Assembly (NCBI GenBank): GCA_034004785.1
Contig: JAVEWA010000001.1
Span: forward strand, 1 to 51,433
Direction of reading: 5' to 3'
DNA length: 51,433 nucleotides
Source: Polyangia bacterium
GTDB lineage: Bacteria; Myxococcota_A; Polyangia; HGW-17; JAJRWW01
Shown here: positions 1,615 to 43,295 of the stretch, piece by piece
Position numbering within the stretch: position 1 is the stretch's first letter
Layout: the number at the start of each line of letters is the position of its first letter
Program-made: the position numbers and the translations under genes
The notes under the pieces: generated by a model
What the model was told of the DNA's origin: nothing
Seen by the model: only the letters and a program-made list of their open reading frames with translations
Databases searched by the model: none

Positions 1615-2519
1615 GGTTTGCTCCCCTCCTGGTCCCCTGAGCCCGTGGAATCCCGTTCGTCGGAGGCCCTCTTGTGGTCGAGGTGGCTCGGATCGCTACC
1701 ATGGTCCCCAGGGCCGTTCCCTGGCCCCTCTTCATCCGGGCCGCCCTGGACGTCCGGGTCCAGGCACTCTGGTGGAGCGCCGGCCTGGGCGTCGCGCCTG
1801 TGCCGGACCCCGCGGAAGCTCTCGTGTACGCAGGGATCTCCCGCGCCCAGGACATCCTCGGGGCTTCCGACCTTGGCGAGGCCCAGGTCTCGGTTTACCA
1901 GGATGGCTCGCTCTGCGTGGGCCCTGACCGTGGTGAGGCTGTGGCTCACCACCATGACGGCGATCTTCTCGGTTCGGGTCATGTCCTCGATGAGGGCTAG
2001 CACGTCCCGCTCGGCGTCCACGTCCATGGCGGCGGTGGGCTCGTCGAGCAGCATGACCCTCGAGGAGGCGACCGAAGCTCGGGCGATGAGGGTGCGCTGC
2101 TGCTCTCCGCCCGAGAGCTGCCGGAAGGGGGTCTGGGCGAGGTGGGGGAGCCCCACGCGCTCGAGGGCCGTCATCGCCTGCTTGCGGTGACCAGGGCCAA
2201 AGGGCCGGCCAAAGCCGAGACTTGGCGCTAGGCCCATCATCACCACGGCTAGAGCGGTCACCGGAAACACGGGATCCAGGGTGTCCCGCTGGGGCACGTA
2301 AGCGATGCCCCCTCGTCTCTCGGCGCCTCCTCTGAGCTTGCATTCCCCTGAGACGAAGGGCAGAAGGCCGGCGATGCTCCGAAGGAGCGTGCTCTTGCCC
2401 GAGCCGTTTGGCCCCACGATGCCCCAGAAGCTCCCCTGCTCCACCTCGAGGTCGATAGGGCCCAGAGTCCAGGCCCCTGGGAAGCCGATGGAGGCCTCGC
2501 GTAGCTCGATGACTGGCAT
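1611..2519 (-). CDS. Metal ABC transporter ATP-binding protein (ZnuC/MntA-like) with an acidic/Gly-rich C-terminal tail
   Basis: Motifs present: Walker A GPNGSGKSTLLRSIAG, ABC signature LSGGEQQRTLIARA, Walker B VMLLDEPTAAMD and H-loop VVSHS. I prefer ATG 2519 (MPVIELREASIGF...) because it matches the usual N-terminus of this family; the longest ORF starts at ATG 2576. The last ~70 aa (…DPDVQGGPDEEGPGNGPGDHGSDPSHLDHK…) are low complexity. Confidence 0.9.
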   Translation of the reverse strand: MPVIELREASIGFPGAWTLGPIDLEVEQGSFWGIVGPNGSGKSTLLRSIAGLLPFVSGECKLRGGAERRGGIAYVPQRDTLDPVFPVTALAVVMMGLAPSLGFGRPFGPGHRKQAMTALERVGLPHLAQTPFRQLSGGEQQRTLIARASVASSRVMLLDEPTAAMDVDAERDVLALIEDMTRTEKIAVMVVSHSLTTVRAHAERAILVNRDLGLAKVGSPEDVLGAGDPCVHESFRGVRHRRDAQAGAPPECLDPDVQGGPDEEGPGNGPGDHGSDPSHLDHKRASDERDSTGSGDQEGSKP

Positions 2520-2591
2520 GACGACTCGAACATCCTTTGGCGAGGGCAGGGTTGTCAAGGCAGGGAAGAGCGTCATGGCTGGTAGTTTTTC

Positions 2592-3515
2592 TCAGGGCTT
2601 CGCCTGGGCCAGGGCGGCGGCTAGGCGGTCCGCGTTGTGCTCGAGCATCTTGGCGTAGGTCGGGGCCCCGGGGAGCCCGCCCGCCATGTGGGCCATCCGC
2701 AAATAGGGCAAGCCGTACTTGGCCGCCACGCGCTTGGCCACCGTGTCCGGGTAGTAGGTCTCGCTCACCACGACCTTGCGTCCGGGCGTGGAGGAGACGA
2801 TCTGATGAAGCTTGGCCAGGTGGGCAGCCGAAGGGGGAACGCCGGGCAGGCGCTCTATGGTGGCCAGGCGGCGAAGGCCCGCCCAGGTGATGAAGTAGAT
2901 CATGCTCTGGTGGTAGGGGATGAGATAGGAGCCCGCATAGGGCGCGAGCTTGGTCTTGAGCCTCCTCGAGAGGCGGACGATCTCGAGGGCGTAGGACTTG
3001 TACTGCCGCTCGTAGGTGGCGGTGTTGCCCGGATCCAATTGGGCGAGCCTCTTGTAAACGCCAAAAGCCACCCGCACTCCGTTTCGCGGATCCATCCAGT
3101 AATGGGGATTGCCTCCAGGGTGCAGATCTCCCATGGCCCGAGAGAGCTTCTGCGAGGGGACCTCCAGGATCTTCACCAGGGTGGAGCAGTCGAGGTAGCC
3201 CCGCTCGCCCACCTGGAGCCTGGAGTTCCTGCTCCCGGTCAGAAGGGGGGGGAGCCAGCCCACCTCTAGCTCCAGGCCCACCAGCAAGAGGAGGTCCGCG
3301 TTTCTGAGAGCCAGGGCGAAGCTCGGCTTGGGGTCCACGAAGTGTGGATCCTGATAGCCCTTGCCCAGGGAGGAGGTGGTTACAAGATTTCCTCCCACAT
3401 TGGCGGCGATGTCGCACAGGTCGGGGATGGTGCAGACGATCTTCATCTTGGCCCCGGCGGGCCGGGCTGCCAGGAAGAGGCTGGCGGTGAGCAGCATTAA
3501 TGCGATTCGTCTCAT
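2592..3515 (-). CDS. Periplasmic metal-binding protein of a Zn/Mn ABC transporter (TroA/ZnuA, cluster 9 family)
   Basis: Signal peptide MRRIALMLLTASLFLAARPAGA. Family-like segments are KIVCTIPDLCDIAANVGG, QDPHFVDPKPSF and GGNPHYWMDPRN. It is in an operon with the ATPase and permease. Confidence 0.85.
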   Translation of the reverse strand: MRRIALMLLTASLFLAARPAGAKMKIVCTIPDLCDIAANVGGNLVTTSSLGKGYQDPHFVDPKPSFALALRNADLLLLVGLELEVGWLPPLLTGSRNSRLQVGERGYLDCSTLVKILEVPSQKLSRAMGDLHPGGNPHYWMDPRNGVRVAFGVYKRLAQLDPGNTATYERQYKSYALEIVRLSRRLKTKLAPYAGSYLIPYHQSMIYFITWAGLRRLATIERLPGVPPSAAHLAKLHQIVSSTPGRKVVVSETYYPDTVAKRVAAKYGLPYLRMAHMAGGLPGAPTYAKMLEHNADRLAAALAQAKP

Positions 3516-10555: not shown

Positions 10556-13213
10556 TCAGGGGGAGACGCAGCTCCCTCCGCTGCACAGGCCGTCCTGGCA
10601 GGCCAGGCCTTCGCAGTCGGGATCTGCGCAGTCGGCGAGGCCGTCTCCGTCGTCGTCCGAGCCGTTGTCGCAGCGCTCGTCAGTGAAGAGGCTGTCAAAG
10701 CGATAGCGCCAGACGTCGGCGTAGTAGACCGACACACCATCCGAGCCGCCGCTCAGCACCACGCCCCGGAGCTCGGGATCGAAGCTCCCGGCAGCGCCGA
10801 GGCGCGCCTCGGGCCAGGTGGTCACACCGAGTGGGGTCCACTGCTGCCCGTCGTATTCCCAGGTGTCGTCCAGGGGGACGGGGCACTCGAGGAAGAAGAG
10901 CCCCTGGAACTCGAGCTTGGTACAACCACCGAAGAGCACGTGGACCTGGCGGTTGTCGTCATACATCAGGAGCTGACCGAGGCGCATGGCAGGAGTGGCG
11001 GTGAAGCTGCGGTTGGTCCAGTCGGTGGAATCCAGCTCCCAGGTTTCGAACGTCATGGAAGCTCCGATTCCTCCAGCCCGGACCGTCACGCTACGCGCCC
11101 TGTCGAAGCTCAATGATGCGAGGACCGTCGGAGGTGGATTGGTAGTGGTGTTCACCAGGGCCCAGGAGATGCCGTCGTACTCCCAGGTGTCGCTATAAAC
11201 CTGGCTCATGTTCACGTCCAGCTCCACCATGCCTCCGTGCACGAGGATCTTGCCGCGGCTCTCGTCGAAGACCATCCCGTGCCAGTAGCGGGCCGGCGGC
11301 GACTGCGCGGGGCTCCTCTGCTCCCATGTGTAGCCGTCATACTCCCAGGTGTCGCCAAGCTCGCCGTTACTCTGGCAAATGTCCAGGGCGTGCATTCGAA
11401 AGGCCTGGCAGCCGCCGAAGAGCACAACTCGATCCCGGATTGGGTCGTAGGCCATAGCATGGCCTGAAACAGCGGGCCCTCCCTGGGCGCCGGGCACCCA
11501 GGCTCCTTGTCCGAACTCCCAGGTGTCCGATCGGGTCCCGAGGGAGTCGCTGCCTCCATGCAGCACCAGGCGACCGCGGCCGTCTCGCGCCACGCCTGCG
11601 AACACTCTAGCAAGCAAGGGCGACGGAACCGTGAGGTTCGACCATGCGGTGCCGGAGAGGGCCCAGGTATCCTCGAGGGCGGCGCCCACGCAGGGATTCG
11701 GCCCATCTCTGAACACGGCGCAGCCACCCTGGACCAGCACGCGGTCTTCCTTGGGATCATAGGCCATGGCGTGCCCGGCCCTCGCGCTGGGACCACCGGG
11801 CGCCGTGAGCATCGACCAGGTTGCGCCGTCGTAGGCCCAGAGATCCCCAAGAGCGCCCCCTGGCGCACGGCCTCCGAAGAGCAGGATGGAGCCCCTCGAG
11901 GTGTCCCAGGCCATGCCGTGACCGCTGCGTGCAGATGGGGAGCTCGCTGGAGTCATCTGGAGCCAGTCCACCCCGTCGTACTCCCAGGTGTCTCCAAGGG
12001 TAGCGCCGTTGCAGAGACCGAGGACGCTCAGGCTGTCACAGCCTCCGAACAGCACCACCCGGCCGCGGAGCGGATCATAGGAGAGCCGGTGGTTGAACCG
12101 AGGCGGCGGAGCGTGAGCCGTGCTCACTGCCACCCAGGCCGCGCCATCGTACTCCCAGGTCTCCCCGCGGGCGCCGCCAGGCGCGAGTCCGCCGAAGAGC
12201 ACAATTCGGCCCCGCGCCGAGTCCCAGGCCAGGGCGTGGCCGGCGAGGGCGCCGGGCAGCTCCGCCGTGGCGATGCGCGACCAATTGACGCCGTCGTATT
12301 CCCACGTGTCCGCTAGGAGGCTCTGGCCGAAGTAGCCCCCGTAGAGCACAACCCGATCTCTGGTTCCGTCGTAGATCATGGCTGAGGCGAACCGCGCCAT
12401 GGGACTATCGAGGGTCTCGACACTTGCCCAGTCAGACCCAGCGAGTTCAACTGTGGTTGGCCTCGTCTCTCCGCCGAAGAGCACTAGGCGCTCCACCTTG
12501 CCCAGGTAGGCCGCCGAATGGGCAGCGCGCCCAGGGACGAAGACCGGCCAGTTCCGCCAGGCCGGGCGTTCCGCCGCGCACAGGCTGTGGCAGCCGTCGT
12601 GGTTTGACGTGCCGCCGTCGTCGCAGTCCTCGGTAGCGGCGTCCACCACTCCATTGCCGCAGGTTTCATCAGACTGGCAGTTGGCAGAGCAGCCATCCCC
12701 GGAGAGGATGTTGCCGTCGTCGCAGGCCTCTCCCGGGTCCTTCACACCGTTGCCGCAGATGTATACCTGACAGGTGACGCCGCAGGTCCCCTCGGCGTGG
12801 CCGTTGGGATGAACGCAATGGGTCGCGGTGGGAAGCGCGGGATCGCCGCAGTCGCACCACTCTCCGGCTCCTACGTCCACTATGCCGTCCCCGCAGCTCG
12901 GAAAGGTGCAGCCGGGCCTGCAGGCGTCGGGGACGACGGCGCTGTTGCGAGGGCCATCGTCGCATTCCTCTCCCTCATCCACCACAGAATCTCCACAGTG
13001 CGCCAGGGTGCAGTCGGTGCGGCAGGCGTCGGGGATGGAGTCGCTGTTTGAAGGCCCGTCGTCGCACTCCTCCCCACCTGTCCGCAGGCCGTCGCCACAA
13101 AGGGCCTGGGAGTTGTTGTTGCCTTGGTTTTGGTTCTGGTTGCCAGCTGGGTCCCCGTCGCCGCAGGCGGAGAGCAGGACGGTTACGCAGAGGCTCCACG
13201 CAAAAAGACGCAT
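10556..13213 (-). CDS. Large lipoprotein: N-terminal myxococcal-type cysteine-rich repeats, about 11 Kelch-like blades and a C-terminal Cys-rich module
   Basis: I prefer ATG 13213, which has a GAGGAG RBS and gives [17 protein letters not shown] (lipobox); the longest ORF extends to 13399. Four to five repeats of CGDG…(E/A)CDDG are present. Recurrent (D/E)TWEYDG..W motifs ([90 protein letters not shown]…) mark the Kelch blades. The C-terminus reads [35 protein letters not shown]. Confidence 0.85.
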
Positions 13214-13464
13214 TGGGAAGCTCCTCGCCGAGGCAGTGGGGCGTCCTGTAGCATACCATCGCGCGCCTTGGCGCACGCGGGGCAAAGATCCCTTTGTCCG
13301 GTCCTGCGCCCCCATATCTGCTTCAGACGAAGAGACGGACCCTCCCTCAGTGCGTCTGATCTTGGCCGAGGAGGTGGGTGTGCTCCCGCAGTCTCCCACG
13401 ATCCAGGGCCGGGACGGCGGCCGAAGCGGCCTTGCGTGGGGCTGGTCGATCAGGAGCTTCGGCG

Positions 13465-14289
13465 TCAGTCATCCATGAAATTGCGGTCCGGGCTGATGCC
13501 GCGGGTCTGGACTGGCTGCTTAAAGCGGGGCTTGGGACGCCAGGGCTGGATCCCCTTGGTGGGCGGCGGCTGGGCGGGCCTCTCCCTCTGGGGCGCCACG
13601 CTCGCCGGCCGCATGCTCTCGGGCTCTTCCATGGCCGCCATGTCCATGGAGTCGGCGTCCATTTCCTTGGTATCTGCCCCAGCGGGCCTTTCGCCTGCTC
13701 CGGGTCTTGCGGGCGGGCTTGCCTCGGGCCTCTCGGGCGGCGGGTCCGCGGGCCTGGGGGCCGCTGCGTCGGCCTTGGCCTCAGGGGGCGGAGGCTCGAC
13801 CTCTCGAGCAGGCCGATCTCCCTCGGCCTCGGGCGTGCCGGGCTGGTCCTTGTCCGGAGAGCCGCCTGATTTGTCGCTCGATTCCTGGGAGGGTTTCTTC
13901 TTGCAGCCAGCTGCGGCCGATGCGCCCAGGAGGGCCGCCAGGGCGAGGGAGGCCTGCTCCAAGAACCTCCGCCTGTCCGGCGCGTCAAGCCGGCCTTTGA
14001 CTCGGGAGATCATCTGGTCCAGGGCTGGCGCGGGCACCGAGGCCAGGATGGCTCGCTCGCTCGCGGAGAAGTCGAGGCCGGTGGCCTCCACTGTGGCCTT
14101 GCGATCTTGCGCCAGGGCATCGGCAAACTCAGGGCTCGCCGCCGCCAGGCCCATCAGGTGCTCGAGGCCCACTGGGATGGGCGGCAGGTCCCGAGCGTTG
14201 CCCTCGGGCTGGCCACCCACGATGGTCGTCCTCGCCGCCTCCCTGCGCAGGATGCTCGCCTTTCCGCTTGTGGCAGCGTTTTTTGTCAT
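13465..14289 (-). CDS. Paralog P1 of a three-member tandem family: leader-like helical N-module, internal RR/lipobox signal and Pro/Glu/Ala-rich tail
   Basis: I prefer ATG 14289, which has an AGGAGG RBS 7 nt upstream and gives [97 protein letters not shown]…[26 protein letters not shown]…. The longest ORF starts at 14346. The module is conserved at the protein level with P2 and P3. Confidence 0.75.
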
Positions 14290-14459
14290 CAGATCCCCTC
14301 CTGCAAGAGCTGTCGAGCCTGGCTGTTTGTTCATCGGGTCTTCCATGGCGTCTCATCCAGATCCGAGCACCGAGAGGTTAGCACATTGGGGCCCCTCGAG
14401 TACATGACCCAGCGAACCAGCGCGCCCGAGGGATCGAGAACCTCCAGGGCCTGGCCGGC

Positions 14460-14583
14460 AATGGGCAGGCCGTCAGAGGGGCAGGTTGCCAATGGGCAGG
14501 CCGTCATAGGGACAGGTTGCCAATGGGCAGGCCGTCAGAGGGGCAGGTTGCCAATGGGCAGGCCGGCAAGGGGCAGGTCGGCG
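14460..14583. repeat. Intergenic tandem repeat, 31 bp x ~4 (AATGGGCAGGCCGTCAGAGGGGCAGGTTGCC), between paralogs P2 and P1
   Basis: Copies lie at 14460-14490, 14491-14521 (2 mismatches), 14522-14552 and 14553-14583 (degenerate). Each unit holds two GGGCAGG cores about 15-16 nt apart and a small GGCAggtTGCC inverted repeat. The period is not a multiple of 3. Confidence 0.9.
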
Positions 14584-14596
14584 CAGAGGGCCCGGG

Positions 14597-15337
14597 TTAG
14601 CGCGGCCGGACGCCGCCCTTGGCGTTCACGTAGGAAGGGCGATCCCGAGGAGGGTCCTGGCAGGGTTGATCGGCAGTCGGCCCCTGGCCAACGCGCTTTT
14701 CATGGATGGCCACTCCGCTCGGGTAGGAGCCTCCGCCCCCCTGGGGCAGCGGGTCCGAGGCCCCGGAGGTGTCCCTGGGGGCGCCAGCGTCTGGGCGAGG
14801 CTGCGGATCTGGCCTTCGCGGAGGCCGGTCGGGCTGGATCCCGGTGGGGGGCGGGGGCTCATGGGGCCGATCCACCCTGGCCCCACCGGCCGTTGCCGGG
14901 GGCCGCTCGGGCCGGCGTTTGGGAAGGGGCTTGCCTTTGCCTGAGGTGGTCTCGCAGCCTGGCAGGGCGGCGCCTCCCACCAGGATGGCCACTGCTGCCG
15001 CTGCCCGCTCGAGGAAGATCCGCCGGTCTGGCTCTACCAGGGCAGGCTTCACCCGGGCGATCATGGTATCCAGGGTGGGTCCGTCCACCGCGCCCAGGAT
15101 GGCCCGCTCCGAGGGGAAGAGCTCGATGCCCGCCGCGTCCGCCGCGCGCTGGGGATCCTTGCGCAGGGCGGCGGCAAAGGGTTCGGAGGTGGAGCCGAGT
15201 GCCAAGAGGTGCTCGAGGCCCACTGGCACGGGAGGAAGCTCCTCATGGCGGCCGTCCGATGGGTGGGCGGCCGCAGCGCTGGAGGAGCCAGCCGAGGTCA
15301 GGCGGCTCGAGGGTGGGGTGGCAGGTCCTTTCTGCAT
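14597..15337 (-). CDS. Paralog P2 of the tandem family (leader-like N-module, internal RR/lipobox signal, Pro/Arg-rich tail)
   Basis: ATG 15337 has an AAGGAG RBS. The sequence reads …EELPPVPVGLEHLLALGSTSEPFAAALRKDPQRAADAAGIELFPSERAILGAVDGPTLDTMIARV…PDRRIFLERAAAAVAILVGGAALPGC…, followed by a Pro/Arg/Asp-rich tail. Confidence 0.8.
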   Translation of the reverse strand: MQKGPATPPSSRLTSAGSSSAAAAHPSDGRHEELPPVPVGLEHLLALGSTSEPFAAALRKDPQRAADAAGIELFPSERAILGAVDGPTLDTMIARVKPALVEPDRRIFLERAAAAVAILVGGAALPGCETTSGKGKPLPKRRPERPPATAGGARVDRPHEPPPPTGIQPDRPPRRPDPQPRPDAGAPRDTSGASDPLPQGGGGSYPSGVAIHEKRVGQGPTADQPCQDPPRDRPSYVNAKGGVRPR

Positions 15338-15444
15338 GGCTCTTCTCCTTGGGCTTCCTGTCTGCGGCCTGTTCGGCCGCCCGTGGTTGTGGGCCTGGGA
15401 GATTCTGGATTTGAGGGTTTGTCTCCGCCTATGGTGGAGGAACC

Positions 15445-16107
15445 CTAGTTGTCTTCTCCTGAACCCTGCCGCGGGCTAGGTTTCGGGGCTACTTTTTCGG
15501 GTCGGATGCCGCCTATCATCCTGGTGTCCTGTGGATCGGGGGCATCCCTGGGCCTCTCGGGCCGGCTGCCCGCGGGCTTATGAGTCCGGTCCGGTCGCGC
15601 GCCGCCGTCCACGTCCAGCTCCGTCTTCCTCGGCCGGAATGGTGGGAGCGCGGGTTGCGCGGCTGCCCCTGCGTCGGGCTCCGAGGGCCTGGGCGTCCGA
15701 GGCTCGGACCCTGGCTGATCCTTTGACTTGGGCGCGGGCTTCTCGGCGCAGGCCGAGAGGGCCGCGCCCCCGAGGAGGAAGGCCACCGCCGCCGCGGCCC
15801 GCTCGAGGAAGATGCGCCGGTCGGGCTGGTCCTGGGCCCTTTCCACGCGGGCGATCATCTGCTCGAGGGAGGAGGCTGGCACGGCCGACAGGATCGAGGA
15901 CTCGGCCGGGGACAGGGAGAGCCCGGCCGCCTGGGCCGCCCTGGCCCTATCGGTTGCGAGGACCGCGGCGAACTCGGGGCTCGCCGCCGCCAGGGAGAGG
16001 ATCTCCTCGAGGCCCGCTGGCACCGGGGGCAGGTCCCGGGCGTTTCCCGGGGGCTGGCCTCCCACTATCGTGGTGCGGGCTGCTTGCCTTTTGCGGGAGT
16101 CATGCAT
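15445..16107 (-). CDS. Paralog P3 of the tandem family (leader-like N-module, internal RR/lipobox signal, Pro-rich tail)
   Basis: The start is ATG 16107 ([88 protein letters not shown]…PDRRIFLERAAAAVAFLLGGAALSAC…), 41 nt after the radical SAM stop. The upstream part of the 574-aa track ORF (to 17169) overlaps the radical SAM gene out of frame and is Arg/Gly/Pro junk. Confidence 0.8.
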   Translation of the reverse strand: MHDSRKRQAARTTIVGGQPPGNARDLPPVPAGLEEILSLAAASPEFAAVLATDRARAAQAAGLSLSPAESSILSAVPASSLEQMIARVERAQDQPDRRIFLERAAAAVAFLLGGAALSACAEKPAPKSKDQPGSEPRTPRPSEPDAGAAAQPALPPFRPRKTELDVDGGARPDRTHKPAGSRPERPRDAPDPQDTRMIGGIRPEKVAPKPSPRQGSGEDN

Positions 16108-16148
16108 GGCGGATTGCCTTTCTGAGCGTCTCTTCGGCCTGGGCCGAG

Positions 16149-17636
16149 CTAGCCCACCGTGAGCTGGGCCTTTGCGGTGGTGGCCTGGGCCACCCGAGGG
16201 GAGTGGGCCCCGCAAGAGTCCGAGGCCTCCAGATCGGCCGAGTCCATCGGGTAGAAGCCCATCTCCTGGAGCACTCTCAGCTTGGGCCGGATGTTCCCCT
16301 CCACGTCGAAGTGGAAGAAGCCGGGGAAGAGATCCGGGTGCTCGGTCACGAAGTCGTAGATCGTCGCGTACTCGGGGGAGATTTCCACCCGGGCGGCGCG
16401 GCAGACCTCGTGGCCCGTCAGGATGTACTCGGGGAAGAGGTCCGGACAGAACTCGAGGGCCTTGCCAGCCTCGGCGTACTCCGAGAAGATGTCGGTCTGG
16501 GGCAGGAAACAGAGCATGGAGGGGAGCACGCGGGCGCCCAGCATGCGGAAGGAGATCATCTGGAAGACGCTCTGGTAGAAGTCGTCCATGGTCTCGAAGG
16601 GGAAGCCCCAGACGTAGAAGGCGTCCACCCGGTCGAAGATGCCCACTGCGGAGCTGACGATCTCCACTGCCTGCTCCGGGAGGAAGCCCTTGCGGGTCTT
16701 TTCGAGCACCGAGGGCGAGGCGGACTCGATGCCGAAGCGGAGCTCGATGCAGCCGGACTGGGCCATGCGCCGCATCATCTCGGGCTCGGCCAGGTTCACC
16801 CGCCCGAAGGCCTTCCATTCCACGCCGAGCCGGGAGGATTCGAGAGCGCCGCAGAAAGCGGTGACCTGGGCGGGCGTGCACACGAAGAACTCGTCCTGGA
16901 AGAGGAAGAGATCCACACCGGCCCTGCGCTTCAGCTCGGCCATCTCGTCGAGAATGTTGGCGCTCGAGCGGTGAAAGGCCTTCCGGCCCCAGATCGGCGC
17001 CACCGAGCAGAAGGTGCAAGGGTAGGGGCAGCCCCTGGAGGTCATGACCCCGTAACCCTCGTACTTGGACAGGTCCACCCGGTGCCAGGCCGGGAAGGGC
17101 ACCTCGTCCAGGTTCGCGATGCGGGGCGCGGGCGGGTTGCGCTGGACGACGCCGTCCGGCCTGCGCCACACGAGGTTCGGCACCTGTGCAAAGCCAGCGC
17201 CTGTCTTGTGGGCCTTGACGAGGGGCACGATCATGCGCTCTCCCTCGCCCACGCTTACAGCGTCGATCCAGGGGAAGCGGGTGAGGATCTGCTCCTCCAC
17301 CCAGGCCGGCCCAACTCCCCCGAGCACCACGGTCTTCTCCGGGTGGCGTCGCTTGAGCTCGCCCGAGGCGAGGATGGCGAAGGGGAGCAGGTTCGCCATG
17401 CAGGAGATGCCCACGAGATCCGCGCTCCCTTCCAGGAAGTCGCAGATGCTCTCGGGCTGGAAGGGGTCGTCGTAGGTGCTTCGCTGGTAGTCTCGCAGAT
17501 CCACCTTCAGCCCGGCGTCCTCCAGCACCCTGGTGAGGTAGAGCACCCCGAGGGGCACGTGGTACTCCCGCTCCACCTGGTCGTAGTAGCGCACGTAGAG
17601 CATGTTCAGGTTTAGCAGGGTGATGTCGTCGGCCAT
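16149..17636 (-). CDS. B12-binding-domain (class B) radical SAM enzyme
   Basis: The radical SAM cluster motif is GCPYPCTFCS (CxxxCxxC). The N-terminal Rossmann-like cobalamin-binding-type domain is …PLGVLYLTRVLEDAGLKVDLRDY…DLVGISCMANLLPFAI…VVLGGVGPAW…. A GGAGG RBS lies 5-9 nt before ATG 17636. Confidence 0.9.
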   Translation of the reverse strand: MADDITLLNLNMLYVRYYDQVEREYHVPLGVLYLTRVLEDAGLKVDLRDYQRSTYDDPFQPESICDFLEGSADLVGISCMANLLPFAILASGELKRRHPEKTVVLGGVGPAWVEEQILTRFPWIDAVSVGEGERMIVPLVKAHKTGAGFAQVPNLVWRRPDGVVQRNPPAPRIANLDEVPFPAWHRVDLSKYEGYGVMTSRGCPYPCTFCSVAPIWGRKAFHRSSANILDEMAELKRRAGVDLFLFQDEFFVCTPAQVTAFCGALESSRLGVEWKAFGRVNLAEPEMMRRMAQSGCIELRFGIESASPSVLEKTRKGFLPEQAVEIVSSAVGIFDRVDAFYVWGFPFETMDDFYQSVFQMISFRMLGARVLPSMLCFLPQTDIFSEYAEAGKALEFCPDLFPEYILTGHEVCRAARVEISPEYATIYDFVTEHPDLFPGFFHFDVEGNIRPKLRVLQEMGFYPMDSADLEASDSCGAHSPRVAQATTAKAQLTVG

Positions 17637-17666
17637 GGGTCCTCCGGCAGGGGGTGCAGCTCGGGA

Positions 17667-17675
17667 ATTATAGCA
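17667..17675 (-). promoter_or_regulatory. Candidate extended -10 promoter element (TGCTATAAT on the minus strand) for the radical SAM/paralog operon
   Basis: The minus strand reads …ctGCTATAATtcccgagctgcaccccctgccGGAGGacccATG. It has a perfect TATAAT with an upstream TGn, 31-39 nt before the radical SAM ATG. I found no good -35 element. Confidence 0.4.
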
Positions 17676-17754
17676 GAATACGCGCGAGCCACGGAGCCGG
17701 TCTTCGGATCCGGGCAGCGCTGCCGCGCTGGCCGAGCTTGCGGCCGAGGCGCGG

Positions 17755-17819
17755 GGTTCCCTTTCAGGGTTCCCTTTCAGGGTTCCTTTTCAGGGTTCCT
17801 TTTCAGGGTTCCCTTTCAG
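17755..17819. repeat. Tandem repeat, 13 bp x 5 (GGTTCC(C/T)TTTCAG), spanning the stop codon of the SagB-like gene and the spacer upstream of the radical SAM promoter
   Basis: Units lie at 17755-17767, 17768-17780, 17781-17793, 17794-17806 and 17807-17819, followed by a partial ggt. Units 3 and 4 differ by C->T. The junctions create CCCTttcAGGG and AGGGaaCCCT inverted repeats. The period is not a multiple of 3. Confidence 0.9.
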
Positions 17820-18447
17820 GGTAGGCTGGCAGGGTAGTGAGGCGCGGATCCTCGATGGCCCGGCCCACGGTGAAGCAGTAGAGGCACTGCCAGGCAGTCC
17901 CCCAAAGGCCGAGGACCCGGTGGACCTCGGCATCCAGGAAGCAGCCGATCCCCGTGCCCCTCATGGCAGCGGCCTCGGCCTCCAGGTACAGGACCTGGCC
18001 AAGGGCGCCCGCCTCCCAGTGAATCGCCCGGTAGAACCAGGGCCCCTCGGCCTCCAGGCGAGGCCCGAGCTCGGCGAGGAAGGCCACGGCGAAGGCGCCA
18101 TCCGAGGCGATCTCCTGCTGTCCGAGGAGGCCCATCGAGAGAGCCCTGAGATCGCCAGCCTCCAGGAGGAACAGGGGGAGGTGAGGCGGGGCGCAGGCAG
18201 GGCTATTCGAGGGGTCCCAGGCTCCATCGAGGCCCATGGTCTGGCGCTGCGCTCGGGCATCCAGGAGATCTCCTGGGACAGGGGCCAGGTCTAGAAGCGC
18301 CATCTGGGCAGTGGGGTAGCTCCTGAAGGGCTCTGGCTCGCTTGCCCAGTCGAGATGAGCCCTCGCGCGGGCCGGGCGTCCGAGGAGGTGCCTGGTGCGC
18401 TCGTGGTAGTCGAGCACCTCTGACAGGGGATCCTGCGAAAAGGTCAT
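17803..18447 (-). CDS. SagB-type dehydrogenase / nitroreductase-superfamily protein (short form)
   Basis: ATG 18447 gives MTFSQDPLSEVLDYHERTRHLLGRP…LDWASEPEPFRSYP…, the YHExT(K/R)H start typical of SagB/ThcOx-like proteins as I remember them. The C-terminal nitroreductase-like segment is HWEAGALGQVLYLEAEAAAMRGTGIGCFLDAEVHRVLGL…YCFTVG. The longest ORF (TTG 18531) would overlap the divergent TPR gene. Confidence 0.65.
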   Translation of the reverse strand: MTFSQDPLSEVLDYHERTRHLLGRPARARAHLDWASEPEPFRSYPTAQMALLDLAPVPGDLLDARAQRQTMGLDGAWDPSNSPACAPPHLPLFLLEAGDLRALSMGLLGQQEIASDGAFAVAFLAELGPRLEAEGPWFYRAIHWEAGALGQVLYLEAEAAAMRGTGIGCFLDAEVHRVLGLWGTAWQCLYCFTVGRAIEDPRLTTLPAYPEREP

Positions 18448-18523
18448 GGGGCGAGCATGACCTGTCGCGCCGAGGGGTGCAATCAGGGTAAACTCCGCCC
18501 AAGGGATGTGAGGGAGCAGGCAT

Positions 18524-19999
18524 ATGCTCAACCGGGATCAGATCATCGCGGCCGCCAGGCGCCTCGCCAGGGAAGGGAACTTCACCGCGGCTATCCGGCG
18601 CTACGAGAAGCTGGTGGAGGAAGACCCGAGTGACCTCGGGGCCCTGCTCAAGATAGGGTATCTGCACGCCTGCAATCGGGACCGGGAGGCGGCCGCGGAG
18701 GCCTACCTCGAGGCCGCCCACGCCTACGAGCAGGCCGGCGACAAGCAGACGGCGGCCAAGGTTCTCACTCAGGTGCTGCGGCTCCAACCCGAGCAGGTGG
18801 ACGTCTACTTCTGGCTGGCTGAGCTGCTGGGTGGGCTCGGACAGCTCGCCGAGGGGAGGCGCTGGCTGGAGGCCGCGGAGCGGCTGCTCATCGCGAAGAA
18901 GAGGCCCAAGGATGCTCTTCGGGTGCTGGAGGCCATGCTGCGCCTGGATCCTGGGAACGTGGCGCTCCTGATCAGGCTGGGCGAGGCGCGGATTCACGCC
19001 GGGAAGAAGGAGGAGGCGCTCGAGGCTCTTCGACAGGCGGCGGACATCCTGCGAATGGCGGAGTGGATGGACGACTTCGTCAAGGTGGCCGAGCGGATCG
19101 CGTACCTGGATCAGTCGGATCTCTCCATCGCCAAGGAGCTGTCGGCGCTCTATCTGAGGCGGAAAGACCCGCAGGCGGCTCTTCGCAAGCTCCAGCGGTG
19201 CTACAGGTCCAACAAGGACGACCCTGCGACCCTGGGACTCCTCGTGGAGGCCTTTGTCGCCCTTGGAGAGAAAAGAAAGGCCGTGACGATCCTGGAGGCC
19301 CTCGTCGAGCTGCACCGCCAGCGGGGAGAGGCGGAGGCAGAGGAGGCGGCAGCGAAGCGCATCCTCGGCCTGGACCCGGCCCGCTCTTCGAAGCGAAAGA
19401 AGGCTCAGCAAGGCGCCAGGATCGAGAGGTCCACTGGTGAGCTGCTCCCCCAGGCTCGCGACAGCGAGGAGATCCCTCGACCGCTCAACACAGACGAGCA
19501 CCAGTTGGCCACCTTGGAGCGTTCCCTGCAACCAGACCCGAGGAGCTCGAGCGCCAGTCGCCGGTTCCTACCGGCCCTCACCGCCCAGACCGAGGAGAGA
19601 ATTGGGAGAAAGACGAGCGGCACCACGGAGCTCGACCTCGCTGACCTGGAGGAGGTTTCCGGGTGGGAGAGAGAACCGATCTGGCAGGAGGAGGTCACTG
19701 CACAGGAGGTCGCGAAGAGCCGTGCCGACGAGAGTCCACCTGTGGCAATCGGCAAGAAGCTCTCGGCTGGGCCCGTCCTGACCCAAGAGTTGGATATAGG
19801 CGATGTGGAGATTGAGGGCGACGATTCCGAAGGGATCGAGCAAGGCAGCGACGAGGCAGAGCTCGATGCCTTGGGAGCGCTGATCGACGAGGAGACCGAG
19901 CGTCGGCGTCCCTTCAGACCGGTGACCACTCTCCCCGATGCCTCCTTGCCCCCGACCTCTGGGAAGGGGAGCTCCCCGCAGAGGAGACCGCGCCGTTAG
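18524..19999 (+). CDS. TPR-repeat protein with an acidic, disordered C-terminal half; N-terminal ~290 aa are paralogous to the 34778..37693 protein
   Basis: The sequence MLNRDQIIAAARRLAREGNFTAAIRRYEKLVEEDPSDLGALLKIGYLH…VLRLQPEQVDVYFWLAELL… aligns colinearly with MAINKNKVIAAAQKFVQKGQLDKAIREYLRVVEEEPGDVRTWLKIGDLQ…VLRLQPEFVEVHFKLAALN…. Confidence 0.85.
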   Translation: MLNRDQIIAAARRLAREGNFTAAIRRYEKLVEEDPSDLGALLKIGYLHACNRDREAAAEAYLEAAHAYEQAGDKQTAAKVLTQVLRLQPEQVDVYFWLAELLGGLGQLAEGRRWLEAAERLLIAKKRPKDALRVLEAMLRLDPGNVALLIRLGEARIHAGKKEEALEALRQAADILRMAEWMDDFVKVAERIAYLDQSDLSIAKELSALYLRRKDPQAALRKLQRCYRSNKDDPATLGLLVEAFVALGEKRKAVTILEALVELHRQRGEAEAEEAAAKRILGLDPARSSKRKKAQQGARIERSTGELLPQARDSEEIPRPLNTDEHQLATLERSLQPDPRSSSASRRFLPALTAQTEERIGRKTSGTTELDLADLEEVSGWEREPIWQEEVTAQEVAKSRADESPPVAIGKKLSAGPVLTQELDIGDVEIEGDDSEGIEQGSDEAELDALGALIDEETERRRPFRPVTTLPDASLPPTSGKGSSPQRRPRR

Positions 20000-20202: not shown

Positions 20203-21432
20203 ATGAACCACGACATCGTGGAGCACCGGAACATGGCGTCGGAGATCCTCTCCTTCATCGAGGAGCTGAATCACCTGCAGCATGTGGACACCATCCTAGA
20301 CCGGATCCTGCTGAAAGCCCGTCAGCTCACCCACGCCGACGCTGGCTCCATCTTCCTCATGGAAGATGGTGACCTGCGTTTCAGCTACGTGCACAACGAC
20401 ACGCTCTACAAGGCCGACGCTCCAACCGCGGCCACCTACGCGGACTTCCGCGTACCCATCGACGAGTCCTCCATCGTGGGCTTCGCGGCCAAGACCCGGC
20501 GCACCCTCGCCATCGACGATGCCTATGCTCTCGTGCCGGATAGGCCCTACCAGTTCAATCCATCCTACGATGAGAAGATGGGATACAGGACAACCTCCAT
20601 CTTGACCATCCCTCTCGTAACCATGAGCGACAAGCTGGTGGGCGTGATGCAGATCATCAACGCCAAGGACGACCGCGGGCAGTCGGTGCCATTCTCGAGC
20701 GAATCCCAGGCCTATCTGCCGCTTCTCGCCAACAACGCGGCGGTGGCGATCGAGCGCGGCATCATGAACCGGGAGCTGGTGCTCCGCATGATGAAGATGG
20801 CGGAGCTGCGAGACCCCACGGAGACTGGCGCCCACGTGCAGAGGGTGGGAACCTACTCTGCGGAGATTTACCGGCGCTGGGCCATGAGCCGCGGGGTGGA
20901 GCACAAGGAGCTCGCTCGCACCGCAGACCACCTGCGGCTCGCAGCGATGCTCCACGACGTGGGCAAGGTCGGCATCTCAGACTTCATCCTCAAGAAGCCC
21001 GGGAGGCTCACCGACGAGGAGTTCTCCACAATGAAGTGGCACACCGTCTTCGGGGCGCGGCTCTTCGTGAACCCGACCTCGGTGCTGGACGAGATGTGCT
21101 ACGACATCTCCCTCGGGCATCACGAGAAGTGGGCAGCGCCGGGCTACCCCGGCCAGGTGAAGAACATCCTGTCGGACGAGGCGCGCATGGGCGAGCCCAT
21201 CCTGGGCGAGGCAATTCCTCTCTCGGCCCGGATAGTGGCCCTCGCGGACGTCTACGATGCCCTGTCGTCCAGGCGCTCCTACAAGGACCCCTGGCCCGAA
21301 GAGCGGGTGCTCGGAGAGATAAGGAAGGACAGTGGCACCCACTTCGATCCCTCGGTCGTGGAGGCCTTCCTGCAGATCCACGAGGTCATCCTGGCCATCC
21401 GGGCTAGGTATCGCGAGGCGGTCAAGGATTAG
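20203..21432 (+). CDS. GAF-domain / HD-GYP-domain protein (probable c-di-GMP phosphodiesterase)
   Basis: The N-terminal region is GAF-like (…ARQLTHADAGSIFLMEDGDLRFSYVHND…MQIINAKDD…). The HD-GYP core includes LAAMLHDVGKVGISDFILKKPGRLTDEEFSTMKWHTVFG and HHEKWAAPGYPG. Confidence 0.9.
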   Translation: MNHDIVEHRNMASEILSFIEELNHLQHVDTILDRILLKARQLTHADAGSIFLMEDGDLRFSYVHNDTLYKADAPTAATYADFRVPIDESSIVGFAAKTRRTLAIDDAYALVPDRPYQFNPSYDEKMGYRTTSILTIPLVTMSDKLVGVMQIINAKDDRGQSVPFSSESQAYLPLLANNAAVAIERGIMNRELVLRMMKMAELRDPTETGAHVQRVGTYSAEIYRRWAMSRGVEHKELARTADHLRLAAMLHDVGKVGISDFILKKPGRLTDEEFSTMKWHTVFGARLFVNPTSVLDEMCYDISLGHHEKWAAPGYPGQVKNILSDEARMGEPILGEAIPLSARIVALADVYDALSSRRSYKDPWPEERVLGEIRKDSGTHFDPSVVEAFLQIHEVILAIRARYREAVKD

Positions 21433-38848: not shown

Positions 38849-41800
38849 TCACTCCGCTGGCCGCTTGATGGCGTCCTGGGCGGCTTTTTTCTGGGCGCTG
38901 GTCTCCGGATTTTCCGGGTTTCCCTTCGTGGAGAGGTATCTGTTCAGGTGGGTGATGCCCAGGCGCGCGCTCTTTGAGCGGAGGTATGACATTCCGAGGA
39001 AATAGTGCAGATCGGGCCACCATGGGCTCGACTCCTCCGCCAAATCGAGGCTCTGGCGCAGGCTGCCTATGGCGGCCGTGAAGCTGTTCTCGTCGAACAA
39101 CGTGCGGCCGAGCATGAAGTGCGCCTCCGCATGCCCACGGTCCAGCGCGATGGCGCGGCGGAACGAACGCATGGCCTGGGCGGGGTTTCTCTCCTGCAGA
39201 TGGCCCTGGCCTTCCAGCAGGAAGGCTTCGGGGGTGGGCTGCTTCCTGATGAGCTCTTGAGCGACGGTGATGCAGCGCTTGGTGTCTCTGAACCGGCACA
39301 GGATCCGCGCCTTGGCGGAAAGGACCTCCAGGTCCGAGGGGCGCTCTCCAAGTAGAGCGTCGTAGAGTTGAAGGGCCTGGCGGGCATCTCCGGACTCTGC
39401 TGCCACGCGAGCCTCTATCATGCGGTGACCGCGTTCCTTTGGCTTGATTGACAGGGCCCGGCGGATGCGCTTGGAGGCCTCCTTGGTGTCTCCCTCCACA
39501 AGAGCAACGAGGGCGTGGAGGGCCATGGCCTTGTCATCCCTGCGGTTCGCATCCTCGAGGAGAGGCTCGATGAGCTGCTTGGCCTTGACCAGGTTGGCGG
39601 GCGTGGGCTGGCGAAGCAGCATCTCGGCGTAGGCCCTGTCCAGAGAATCACTTCGCAGGATCTTGCGAGAGTCCTCGAAGCGCTGTATCGCGCGGTCTCT
39701 TTCCTTGCGTTCCCAGTGGTATTCAGCGATGAGCCGCAGACCCTCCAACATCGCGCTAGCTCGCTTTGCCACCTGATCCAGAAGCAGGAACGCCTCCTCG
39801 GGCTTCTTCTGATGCCGCCAGAGACAGGTCGCGAGCTCGAGGAGCAGCTCGTTCGAGGATGGATCCCGTTCGCTCCCAGTACGCAATACCTTCTCGGCGG
39901 CGTCGAACCTTCCCAGGCCGATGAGCATCCTCCCCTCCAGGATGACCAGCGGAGCAGGGATGCTGCCTCCGTACCTGGCCCGCACGAGCTCTAAAACCGT
40001 CTTCATGCCCTCGAACTGACCCTGCTCGTGCAGGAGATCGAGGAATGCCGCATGGCCGTCGGTGAAGTCGTGGTGGCGGCTTGTGGAGGAAAGATAGAGC
40101 CTCCGAGCCTCCTCTAATTCTCCTCGCGCCTGGGCGATCCGCCCCCTGGCGAGGTTGAGCCATTGGTCATCGAAGGGGACGACCTTGCCGCCGGCCTCCT
40201 TTTGGGGTGGAGCGTCCGCGCGAGGGTCTTCCTCCGCGCTTCTCCTGGCCTGCATGGTGGGCTCGGGCTCGCCCGCAGGTCTCTCCCCACGAGGCTCGCT
40301 CGGGAGCTCCATGGCCTCCATGGAAGCTCCGTCGCGAGGAGCAGCCGGCTTCTCTTTCGTGGCTGGGATGCGGTTGGAGAGCAGCTTTCCGATAGCCTCT
40401 TCGGCCAGCGAGAGCTGGCCGAGGGCCAAGTGAGCCCTCACGAGCGCCTCGAGGATCCGGGTGCTGCCGGGGTCAACCTTCATGGCGGCCTCGAGTCGGG
40501 CTGCGGAGGTGCTGGGGTCGCCCATCTGCAATCGGGTGAGACCATCCAGGACGAGCAGGGCTGGTTCGACCCCTTGGGCTTGGGTCGCCTCGGAGAGGAT
40601 CTTGAGGGCCTTGTCCAGAGCGCCTTGGCCCAGGGCCAGAAGGGAGAGGCCCCGTGCGATGGCGCTGCGTTCCCTGGGAGAAGCCTGCTCCCCCAGCTTT
40701 TCAAGGAGGTCTTTCAGCTTCTTTTCGCTCTCGAGGGGATCGGCGGGCGGCGCCAGCTCCAAGAGAGCAACTCGAGCCTGGGCATGTAGTGGGCTGCTCT
40801 TCAGAGCTTCACCGAGGAGCGTCGCTCGCTCCTCCCGAGTGGCTGAAGCGTCCTTGATGGCGAGCGTTGTCGCCAGGGCGTAGCGGGCGCCGGCAGACTC
40901 CTCCCTGGTTGTGAGCACTCGGCGAAAGTGGCGCTCGGCAGCAGCCAGGTCGCCCGAGTCCAGGGCCAGGTAGCCAGAGAGCAAGGGGATCTCGGGATCC
41001 TTCTTTCGGAGCCCCGAAGCCTGCTTCAAGAGAGTGCGTGCGGTCTTTTTCTTTCCCGCGAGCATCTTGTCGATGGCTCTAGCCTTGAGGAACTCCGGGT
41101 CTTCCACTTCTCCGAGCTCCTTGAGTATCCTACGGGCCTTCTTCTGCAGGTCCGGCGCAGTGTATCGATATGCCGCCAAGAGCATCGTTTTGGCCCGGGC
41201 AGCCTTCAGAGATTGGGAAGGGGTCTTCTTGTCCTTCTTGGAGAGGGCCAGGGCGGTCTCCTTGTACGAGGCAAAGGTGTCGAGATCCATCGTGGGCAGA
41301 TACGCCACAGTGGTCGAGGTCTCAGAGGGGCGGGTGGGCGGCTCCCTTGGACCAACTTCCGGAGGCTTGGCAGCCTGCCCCCTGCTTGCTTGGGATCCGG
41401 TTTTGGAGGACCTGGTCCCAAGGTAGAGCGCGATCGCTGGTCCGATCACGACAAGGGAGAGCACGGCGATGGCGATTCCCCGAGGCATTCCAAGAAGCAT
41501 CCTTCCCTGTCGCCGGGAGGGTTTGGATGGGCGTGACTCCTGGGGCGGATGAGCATCCTCCTCGGCATCGGCCGGGCCGAGTGATTGTCCTGGCGCCGGT
41601 TGTATCGCTGCGCCCGGGCCGAGATGGACTTCCTCTCCATCTGCTCCAGAGGCAGACACATCGATTGGGGAGACGAGATCCAACTCCGAGAGGTCCACCG
41701 GCGCAGCGCCAGGCATGTCTCCATGGCCGTCTCCGCTGTCGAGCTCCAACTCTCCCCAACCCATGGCTCCAGCATCTTCCTTGGCGGCCCTCGGCGTAGG

Positions 41801-42976: not shown

Positions 42977-43013
42977 CTGGCCTCCAGGGTCTCTGTTCGA
43001 CTGAGCTGAGGAG

Positions 43014-43295
43014 CTACTTGAACCAGCGCAGTCCTGGATCACGCGAGGTGCGGCTGATCTGGTCGAGGAAGCTCTTTTGCAGTCTCAGCAGTCGATCGAA
43101 GAGGGGCGACTTCAAGGCCCTCGTATAGACGGTCGCGGGTTTGTTGATCTCCCCATCGATGAGGAGCTCGTCGAAGTCGTAGAAACGGGTTCTGTCCCCT
43201 TCCGCCTTGGGTGCGGAGGCTGCCTCGGGTGGATTCGCCGCTCCTAGCAGGACGAGAAGCGCAAACGAAATCATCGCGCAGGTCCAGCGGGTCAT
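43014..43295 (-). CDS. Small secreted protein at the GltF/NfsF position of the cluster
   Basis: 93 aa with signal peptide MTRWTCAMISFALLVLLGAA, then …RFYDFDELLIDGEINKPATVY…. The ATG overlaps the upstream stop (ATGA at 43292-43295). The functional label rests on gene order only. Confidence 0.65.
   Translation of the reverse strand: MTRWTCAMISFALLVLLGAANPPEAASAPKAEGDRTRFYDFDELLIDGEINKPATVYTRALKSPLFDRLLRLQKSFLDQISRTSRDPGLRWFK

Follow-up and report, generated by a model that had tools for sequence, protein, structure and literature searches.

NHLP leaders are structured docking domains for the enzymes that mature RiPPs, peptides made on the ribosome and modified after translation (PMC12537861). 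In proteusins of the polytheonamide type, a structured, nitrile hydratase-like N-terminal leader is accompanied by an adjacent class B radical SAM enzyme (the C-methyltransferases PoyB/PoyC) and often by several precursor copies. Os1348, which belongs to the same clan, is an 85-aa antibiotic-related presumed precursor from a cluster of Pseudomonas sp. Os17 that also carries GNAT, HEXXH-peptidase, and SagB-type genes (PMC7726476), and RiPP precursors of a further kind can use lipoprotein signals for both processing and lipidation (PMC13056109). Here, we analyzed a locus that shares features with all three, located on a 51,433-nt stretch of Polyangia bacterium DNA (contig JAVEWA010000001.1, positions 1 to 51,433; hereafter the window; G+C content ~65%), in which a gene encoding a class B radical SAM enzyme (hereafter rSAM) lies beside three tandem paralogs, P3, P2, and P1, each with an NHLP-like N-terminal module (N-module). 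The locus probably represents an undescribed protein-modification system, a pairing that recurs, unannotated, in hundreds of uncultured bacteria.

An earlier note on this DNA, made from the sequence alone, had placed five genes on the minus strand within 13465 to 18447 in the order SagB-like gene, rSAM, P3, P2, and P1, and inspection of the open reading frames (ORFs) confirmed the genes, their strand, and their order. The G+C content at third codon positions was 0.79 to 0.92 in the frames of the five genes, supporting their being coding, with values of 0.79 to 0.83 in the paralog frames. The features of the rSAM-paralog module were as follows.

16149 to 17636, minus strand: class B (cobalamin-domain) radical SAM enzyme, 495 aa, with Pfam B12-binding and Radical_SAM domains and no signal peptide; the conserved enzyme of the module.
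15445 to 16107, minus strand: P3, 220 aa; TIVGGQPP at aa 13 to 20, NHLP-like bundle at aa 26 to 88, RRIFLE at aa 97 to 102, and lipobox LSAC with C120.
14597 to 15337, minus strand: P2, 246 aa; NHLP-like bundle at aa 34 to 96, RRIFLE at aa 105 to 110, and LPGC with C128; no TIVGG.
13465 to 14289, minus strand: P1, 274 aa from an ATG with an AGGAGG ribosome-binding site; TIVGGQP at aa 22 to 28, bundle at aa 35 to 97, RRRFLE at aa 106 to 111, and AAGC with C129.
15748 to 15819 (P3), 14954 to 15025 (P2), and 13903 to 13974 (P1), minus strand: twin-arginine motif, hydrophobic region, and lipobox Cys, assigned at motif level.

For P1, a longer ORF of 293 aa, extending to 14346, is an alternative; its catalogue entry (P0124) has 274 aa. 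Lengths of 220 to 275 aa had been given earlier for the putative substrates, and their predicted mature parts comprise 101 to 146 aa. A hidden Markov model (HMM) built from 71 family members matched all three paralogs with E-values of 1e-29 to 7e-41, far beyond chance, bearing out the claim of a shared N-module.

Across genomes, the paralogs and the class B rSAM make up a two-gene module whose conservation is strict. Among 185,579 species genomes scanned, 273 encoded a relative of the rSAM, and the best 80 loci were kept. All 80 were from metagenome-assembled genomes (MAGs) spanning ~12 phyla, with no cultured isolate among them, so that work on the system in its natural hosts may be difficult. 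At least one same-strand ORF matching the N-module HMM was present in 73 of the 80 rSAM-anchored loci, nearly always ending at the start of the rSAM gene, and the remaining seven were all cut by contig ends, with less than 900 bp of upstream sequence. The co-occurrence of this enzyme with such paralog arrays that the earlier note had proposed checking is therefore essentially constant. A single N-module copy was found in 45 loci, two in 17, three in 6, and four to six in 3. In the window and its nearest relatives (L010, L011, and the closest, L093), the paralogs lie downstream of the rSAM rather than upstream. When the ORFs in these loci were clustered all-vs-all, the rSAM and the N-module proteins were the only families found to be conserved; antisense ORFs of the rSAM made up the two clusters that ranked next, and no other conserved neighbor emerged. 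Neither a peptidase nor an ABC exporter was conserved in the 80 loci.

Searches anchored on the other partner gave the same picture. The paralog family returned 83 word-index matches, all annotated as hypothetical and often several per contig, and in four of the five paralog-anchored look-ups, a B12-binding radical SAM enzyme of ~491 aa was immediately adjacent. The exception (L001) carries the contig prefix JBDRSE01, as does L011, a locus with the rSAM and two paralogs, and this common prefix suggests that both derive from one MAG. The genes were also adjacent in two further cases, one of them L093. Homologs of the rSAM with 56 to 60% identity were encoded in Planctomycetota, Armatimonadota, Riflebacteria/Ozemobacter, Eremiobacterota, Kiritimatiellae, Verrucomicrobiota, Lentisphaerae, Elusimicrobia, Chloroflexota, Aminicenantes, and Desulfomonile, and in three such genomes, one or more unannotated genes of the same architecture sat just upstream. 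That the adjacency is meaningless, the two genes being chance neighbors, is hardly credible and is effectively refuted by its occurrence in 73 of 73 assessable loci from ~12 phyla in which the rest of the neighborhood varies.

The N-module is a true NHLP-clan domain, homologous to RiPP leaders. P1, P2, and P3 matched the NCBIfam model NF038399 ('Os1348 family NHLP clan protein') with E-values of 2e-6 to 4e-5, and the same model was matched by 53 of 55 diverse N-modules from different phyla (best E-value, 4e-13). Pfam Frankia_peptide (PF14407) was matched by 22 of the 55, and a few matched TIGR04509, nitrile hydratase alpha, or the NHLP leader model TIGR03793. When a profile built from the 55 N-modules was run against PDB sequences, it retrieved Os1348 (6lk7; E-value, 5e-6) and nitrile hydratase alpha (E-value, 1.6e-5); chains of the latter also made up nearly all of the other matches, and an NHLP leader structure appeared among the weak ones at the end of the list. 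AlphaFold2, run on a 59-sequence alignment, predicted a five-helix bundle over residues 31 to 91 (pLDDT ~95), followed by a long helix over the signal segment and a disordered tail. In a Foldseek search with the P3 model, three chains of 6lk7 ranked top (probability 0.93; target-normalized TM score 0.54 to 0.61), followed by nitrile hydratase alpha, the E-value being weak (0.4). The likeness to NHLP-type RiPP leaders that had been read from the sequence alone thus holds at the level of the clan.

The family is large. With the P3 N-module as query, phmmer retrieved at least 1,280 clusters at 50% identity from 1.84 billion representatives at E <= 1e-3, of which 428 had E <= 1e-10. Among the top 150 matches, proteins of 115 to 534 aa, the module was at or near the N-terminus. 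Some family members (P0341 and P0383; positions 827 to 1963 of L092) have two tandem NHLP modules.

Membership of the rSAM in class B is solid. The protein matched Pfam B12-binding (PF02310; E-value, 4e-14) and Radical_SAM (PF04055; E-value, 5e-13), with the B12-binding Rossmann domain N-terminal to the CxxxCxxC radical SAM core, as is characteristic of the class; cobalamin binding is predicted from this arrangement. The cysteines of the CPYPCTFC motif noted earlier (C203, C207, and C210; C-x3-C-x2-C) were invariant in 12 homologs from several phyla that are 56 to 76% identical, and together with this motif a further 150 alignment columns were invariant. The C-terminus (aa 467 to 495; 16149 to 16250 in the window) carries a family-invariant S-C-G-x-H-S-P motif in a region that AlphaFold2 predicts to be disordered (pLDDT <50), and this tail could serve as a metal or cobalamin ligand or as a gating tail.

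Beyond its class, the enzyme could not be placed in a known family. No NCBIfam model reached its cutoff; the best was ApyD (160 bits vs. 750), with BchE scoring 123 bits and TIGR03975 scoring 88.5 bits. The cutoff of the last model is 281.85 bits, and the link to proteusin C-methyltransferases made in the earlier note was therefore not upheld. ApyD is a tyrosine beta-C-methylase. Other profile relatives were HpnJ/HpnR and a lipid-biosynthesis B12-binding radical SAM enzyme. The best match among PDB sequences was 9ccb (MgmA) at 54 bits. The AlphaFold2 model (pTM 0.81) matched OxsB, CysS, MgmA, TsrM, and TokK with a Foldseek probability of 1.00, and the solved B12-binding radical SAM enzymes, including AprD4, were matched about equally at 17 to 21% identity. 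Given that the profiles fall below cutoff and the fold matches do not discriminate, chemistry cannot be transferred to this enzyme by homology.

Directly behind the N-module, all three paralogs have PDRR(I/R)FLE, a stretch of 17 residues, most of them hydrophobic, and LSAC, LPGC, or AAGC (C120 in P3, C128 in P2, and C129 in P1). This segment has the pattern of a twin-arginine lipoprotein signal, starting ~100 residues into the protein. Compared with the consensus, (S/T)RRxFLK, a moderately hydrophobic region, and a lipobox [LVI][ASTVI][GAS]C, the window proteins have RRIFLE or RRRFLE, and P2 has a Pro at -2 of the Cys that is outside the lipobox consensus. The model TIGR01409 (TAT_signal_seq) matched this segment in 14 of 55 homologs. 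Among the family representatives with both TIVGG and a hydrophobic region (n = 180), 147 had the RR pair ahead of that region, in the pattern RRxFL(K/R/E), and 122 had a lipobox, with another 41 having a nearby Cys. The combination of RRxFLE, hydrophobic region, and lipobox behind the N-module suggests that general export and signal peptidase II could replace the exporter and protease that appear to be missing from the locus, and that these proteins may use twin-arginine translocation (Tat) and lipoprotein signal peptidase (Lsp).

Two motifs recur on either side of this signal. Columns conserved in at least 90% of sequences across phyla were T-I-V-G-G-x-P, the P-x-G that opens helix 1, and a few helix positions. 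TIVGG(Q/R)PP, located upstream of the module, is near-invariant (202 of 217 representatives), and 180 of these 202 also had a hydrophobic region after the module; of the 180, 152 carried the tail motif described below. In P3 and P1, TIVGGQP(P) lies ~12 residues upstream of the module, and in P2 it was absent in every reading frame, ruling out a copy hidden by a frameshift. The tails of P1 to P3 are divergent, with 21 to 23% Pro, 16 to 19% Arg+Lys, and 11 to 18% Asp+Glu, in agreement with their description as Pro/Arg/Glu-rich in the earlier note, with Asp being rich as well. The P3 tail (101 aa) contains GARPD, GSRPE, and GIRPE; that of P2 contains GIQPD and a C-terminal GGVRPR, and that of P1 (146 aa) contains GGSPD, GIQPW, and a C-terminal TRGISPD. 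Across the family, the motif G-[I/A/V]-x-P-D-x-P occurred 271 times in 128 tails vs. 16.7 +/- 4.2 times in shuffled tails. It was found in 109 of the 128 tails, often within ~15 residues of the C-terminus, and its logo reads (T/P)(G/R)-G-(I/A/V)-(R/A)-P-D-x-P-P. Reading it as a PEP-CTERM-like C-terminal sorting signal was rejected, since the motif is often internal, repeated, and not followed by a transmembrane helix.

Some tails contain folded-looking passengers, including thioredoxin-like (sub-threshold in Pfam), pilin-like (by sequence reading), ACP-like, and sub-threshold CarboxypepD_reg domains, and in the thioredoxin-like, ACP-like, and pilin-like cases examined, the tail motif flanks the passenger or lies near the C-terminus. 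In members with an ACP-like (PP-binding) domain, this domain is in the predicted exported part and is flanked by GIRPD-type motifs; in L092, an rSAM gene of the same family starts 320 bp downstream. In a planctomycetal locus (L009, 1075 to 5979), the rSAM is preceded by six consecutive N-module genes; the products of two of these have pilin-like passengers (by sequence reading), lack TIVGG, and have G-P-D-x-x-P near the C-terminus.

The ACP-like domains raise the question of whether the rSAM instead acts on a small molecule, lipid, or cofactor, with the N-module proteins serving as scaffolds, carriers, or export adaptors. BchE, HpnJ/HpnR, and the lipid-biosynthesis enzyme among the profile relatives are consistent with such a role, and Tat is typically used by cofactor-carrying proteins. 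However, no other biosynthetic gene is conserved nearby, the only known members of the partner's clan are RiPP leaders and nitrile hydratase alpha, and most tails are disordered and Pro-rich, without a fold that could hold a cofactor. We consider a nonprotein substrate quite unlikely.

We favor, with somewhat better than even confidence, the reading that the locus is an instance of a widespread two-gene protein-modification module, in which leader-guided modification of the tail motif precedes export. Each substrate would comprise, in order, a short basic N-terminus, TIVGG(Q/R)PP, a five-helix Os1348-type domain, a twin-arginine/lipobox signal, and a disordered Pro/Arg/Asp/Glu tail with its motifs. 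The cytoplasmic rSAM would dock on the TIVGG-plus-NHLP leader and modify one or more residues of the tail motif, with P or D as the most likely target and C-methylation as the default guess. Export would then be post-translational, with Tat as the route for proteins that have the RR pair and presumably a different route for the others. Lgt and signal peptidase II would process the protein before C120, C128, or C129, so that leader and signal are lost in one cut, and the outcome would be a lipid-anchored, modified, Pro-rich protein in the envelope. Under this scheme, no dedicated protease or exporter is needed, explaining why only two genes are conserved. The rSAM remains 56 to 60% identical across phyla while the tails diverge, which fits recognition of a conserved leader and motif, and the scheme would also account for diverse passengers behind a common N-terminal cassette.

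Several observations weigh against this reading. The NF038399 scores of P1 (27.1 bits), P2 (23.6), P3 (27.8), and the isolated P3 module (29.6) are all below the 40-bit cutoff, so that by these profiles the N-modules are a sister family within the NHLP clan, below the curated membership threshold, not curated members. The window paralogs have no significant match to a Tat-signal HMM and carry the signal at motif level only (P2 vs. UCR_Fe-S_N, E-value 0.06), and a signal peptide ~100 aa from the N-terminus is unusual. Members from Riflebacteria and Kiritimatiellae lack the RR pair, and in some phyla it is replaced by RK, HK, or KR, or no basic pair is present, which indicates that Tat is not universal. 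B12-domain radical SAM enzymes are not all methylases, and AprD4, OxsB, and BchE are about as close to this enzyme as methylases are. The tail motif was missing from 19 of the 128 tails. Furthermore, the target could be TIVGG itself, the most conserved element, which is located upstream of the signal.

If TIVGG(Q/R)PP rather than the tail were modified, the N-module would stay in the cytoplasm, either membrane-anchored or as a released signal fragment, and the modification would regulate export, stability, or signaling of the passenger. The at least 90% conservation of TIVGG-x-P across phyla speaks for this, as does the resemblance of the two motifs, whose logos share a G-x-R-P core, and signal anchoring in the N-in orientation is conceivable for members that have no lipobox or cleavage site. 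Nevertheless, copies without TIVGG, such as P2 in the window, persist with tail motifs, and the most conserved segment of a RiPP precursor is usually its recognition sequence. In seven of nine loci, a TIVGG-less copy sits beside a TIVGG-bearing copy, which fits a recognition role for TIVGG as well as a target role. On balance, we regard TIVGG as an improbable target, albeit the strongest of the alternatives, and retain leader-guided modification of the tail.

In its most specific form, the tail-modification reading describes a new class of modified lipoproteins, in which an NHLP leader placed before a Tat/lipoprotein signal recruits a novel B12-binding radical SAM enzyme that places a new kind of modification on G-I-R-P-D-x-P ahead of export, with signal peptidase II in the role of leader peptidase. 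This we put forward tentatively, at somewhat less than even likelihood. The leader and the enzyme class are proteusin-like and the export logic is DAG-RiPP-like, while the layout of leader, signal, and motif-bearing tail is unprecedented; no curated model, solved structure, or paper describing this architecture was found in NCBIfam, the PDB, or the literature searched. Unlike proteusins, the leader here is of the Os1348 subfamily and not TIGR03793, the rSAM is outside TIGR03975, and an epimerase, a C39 exporter, and a double-Gly site behind the leader are all missing. Where proteusin precursors pass from leader to core through a double-Gly site cleaved by a C39/PCAT exporter, a Tat/lipoprotein signal is placed between the leader and the 'core', and the predicted products are Pro-rich proteins of 100 to 150 aa, sometimes with folded domains. 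Os1348 (6lk7) is the best profile and fold match, and its cluster, like the window, has a SagB-type protein without a nearby YcaO (PMC7726476). In contrast, Os1348 is soluble, without TIVGG, signal peptide, or Pro-rich tail, and its cluster has a 650-aa SagB-type gene and no radical SAM gene.

DAG-RiPPs, made by ChrH-family MNIO enzymes (PMC13056109), and bufferins share with the proposed scheme the logic of cytoplasmic modification followed by a general secretion or lipoprotein signal, with housekeeping export, leader removal, and lipidation, and their products can also be whole proteins. Unlike the proteins described here, DAG-RiPPs are modified by an MNIO and not a B12-binding radical SAM enzyme, have their signal peptide at the N-terminus, and have no NHLP domain ahead of it. 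The DAG-RiPP report makes no mention of radical SAM enzymes, NHLP, or Tat/twin-arginine signals (PMC13056109), and no MNIO/DUF692 gene was present at the locus or in the gene tables of the related loci looked up. The methyl-coenzyme M reductase methylase MgmA (TIGR04014) has the class B radical SAM fold and acts on a protein, not a short peptide, and its structure (9ccb) gave the highest target-normalized TM score among the listed fold matches (0.68). However, it is only ~21% identical (54 bits), its substrate is unrelated and has no leader domain, and it belongs to archaeal methanogenesis.

The remaining features of the locus lie at its edges and in its spacers.

17803 to 18447, minus strand: SagB/ThcOx-family remnant, 214 aa from an ATG (a 242-aa ORF from a TTG is also open); a neighbor outside the conserved module.
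17754 to 17822, no strand assigned: tandem array of a 13-bp unit, TGAAAGGGAACCC on the minus strand, 5.3 copies, upstream of the rSAM.
17667 to 17675, minus strand: TGcTATAAT, an extended -10-like element read from the sequence as a perfect TGnTATAAT, its last base 30 nt upstream of the rSAM ATG.
14459 to 14578, no strand assigned: tandem array of a 31-bp unit, 3.9 copies with 93% matches, in the P2-P1 spacer; unique in the window, without an Rfam match, and absent from the earlier note.

In the earlier note, the SagB-like gene was counted as part of the pathway. A pathway of SagB-like dehydrogenase, rSAM, and paralogs, with the first as a tailoring oxidoreductase, is suggested by their common strand and adjacency in the window, and the closest relative, L093 (rSAM 87% identical), has a full-length 585-aa SagB-family protein upstream of the rSAM, in the order SagB-family gene, VapB, PIN, rSAM, and P3 homolog. 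The L093 protein passes TIGR03605 (90.2 vs. 78.4 bits) through its residues 82 to 233, and Pseudomonas sp. Os17 likewise pairs an NHLP-clan precursor with a SagB-type protein in the absence of YcaO (PMC7726476). The window ORF, however, scores only 14.8 bits against this model, whose cutoff is 78.4. It matches homologs over its C-terminal 50 to 65% only; in SagB/ThcOx-type proteins of 410 aa, the part with which it aligns is the second lobe. It corresponds to residues 1 to 72 and 450 to 579 of the L093 protein, joined in frame at 18202/18201, and is thus an internal in-frame deletion derivative; the lost residues 73 to 449 (~377 aa) include the stretch that matches the SagB model. No SagB-like homolog was present in L092 or in L001 to L089, among them the 80 rSAM-anchored loci; the gene is missing even beside rSAMs 76 to 84% identical to that of the window. 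Standalone homologs of 211 to 253 aa sit in unrelated neighborhoods, the VapB-PIN pair of L093 intervenes between the SagB-family gene and the rSAM, and in the window TGcTATAAT does so. A joint pathway is therefore very unlikely, with only chance adjacency of the module genes less likely still, and SagB was ruled out as a part of the module on co-occurrence, standalone neighborhoods, and the in-frame deletion. By sequence comparison, the link is a lineage-specific synteny, seen in L093 only, with the gene decayed in the window. An accessory role in a small lineage is conceivable at low probability, by analogy with Os17, with the gene still outside the module.

The locus also differs from azol(in)e (TOMM) pathways in having neither a YcaO nor an intact SagB-type FMN dehydrogenase; no YcaO was found among the profiled proteins of the locus, in line with the earlier observation, or among the genes called in those related loci that were looked up. 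As had been proposed, the locus lies outside every canonical RiPP class.

The 13-bp array described in the earlier note as a five-copy repeat in the spacer is real and nonrandom (TRF score 124; 5 matches in the window vs. 0.94 expected, with 0 of 100 shuffles reaching 5). It overlaps the stop codon of the SagB-like gene, however, and is thus not wholly spacer. At the corresponding place, L093 has its VapB antitoxin/PIN toxin pair (2489 to 3104). Spacer repeats were ruled out as a conserved feature, since the arrays are unique in the window and the tandem repeats of L010 have other units. The extended -10 element reported upstream of the rSAM was found by direct reading (17675 to 17667) and may be a separate promoter for an rSAM-P3-P2-P1 unit, as judged from its sequence; a generic promoter scan returned no full -35/-10 site and does not support a promoter. 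A riboswitch or other known RNA in the spacers was rejected, as there was no Rfam match at E <= 1 in 13000 to 19000.

Directly downstream of P1, the window encodes a protein of ~880 to 947 aa (10556 to 13399, minus strand) with its own lipoprotein-type signal (LLSAC) and Cys-rich and Kelch-like repeats, which is not kept beside the module in other loci. A signaling protein with GAF and HD-type (HD-GYP-like) domains is encoded at 20203 to 21432 on the plus strand, and three other loci (L043, L085, and L086) have homologous ORFs no more than 5 kb from the rSAM; the gene orientation differs in the window, which suggests that this reflects the general abundance of these domains and is probably coincidental. 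Elsewhere in the window, 78- to 84-bp tandem repeats (3 to 4.6 copies; up to 99% matches) lie at 41789 to 42613, inside a long minus-strand ORF (38849 to 43042).

So far, the system is confined to uncultured members of about a dozen phyla. If the proposed reading is correct, the N-module proteins would constitute a large unannotated family of at least 1,280 clusters at 50% identity, with the enzyme encoded in 273 of 185,579 species genomes, and RiPP-style leader-guided chemistry would be tied to general Tat/lipoprotein export. The rSAM would be a new B12-binding radical SAM enzyme with a clean, testable short-motif substrate, and, following the MNIO-based DAG-RiPPs, the system would be a second independent case in which housekeeping signal peptidases take the part of leader peptidases. 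The combination of TIVGG, NHLP fold, and RRxFL would offer a precursor signature for genome mining, and the modified proteins would represent a conserved component of the envelope in Myxococcota, Planctomycetota, Armatimonadota, Riflebacteria, and other mostly metagenomic phyla.

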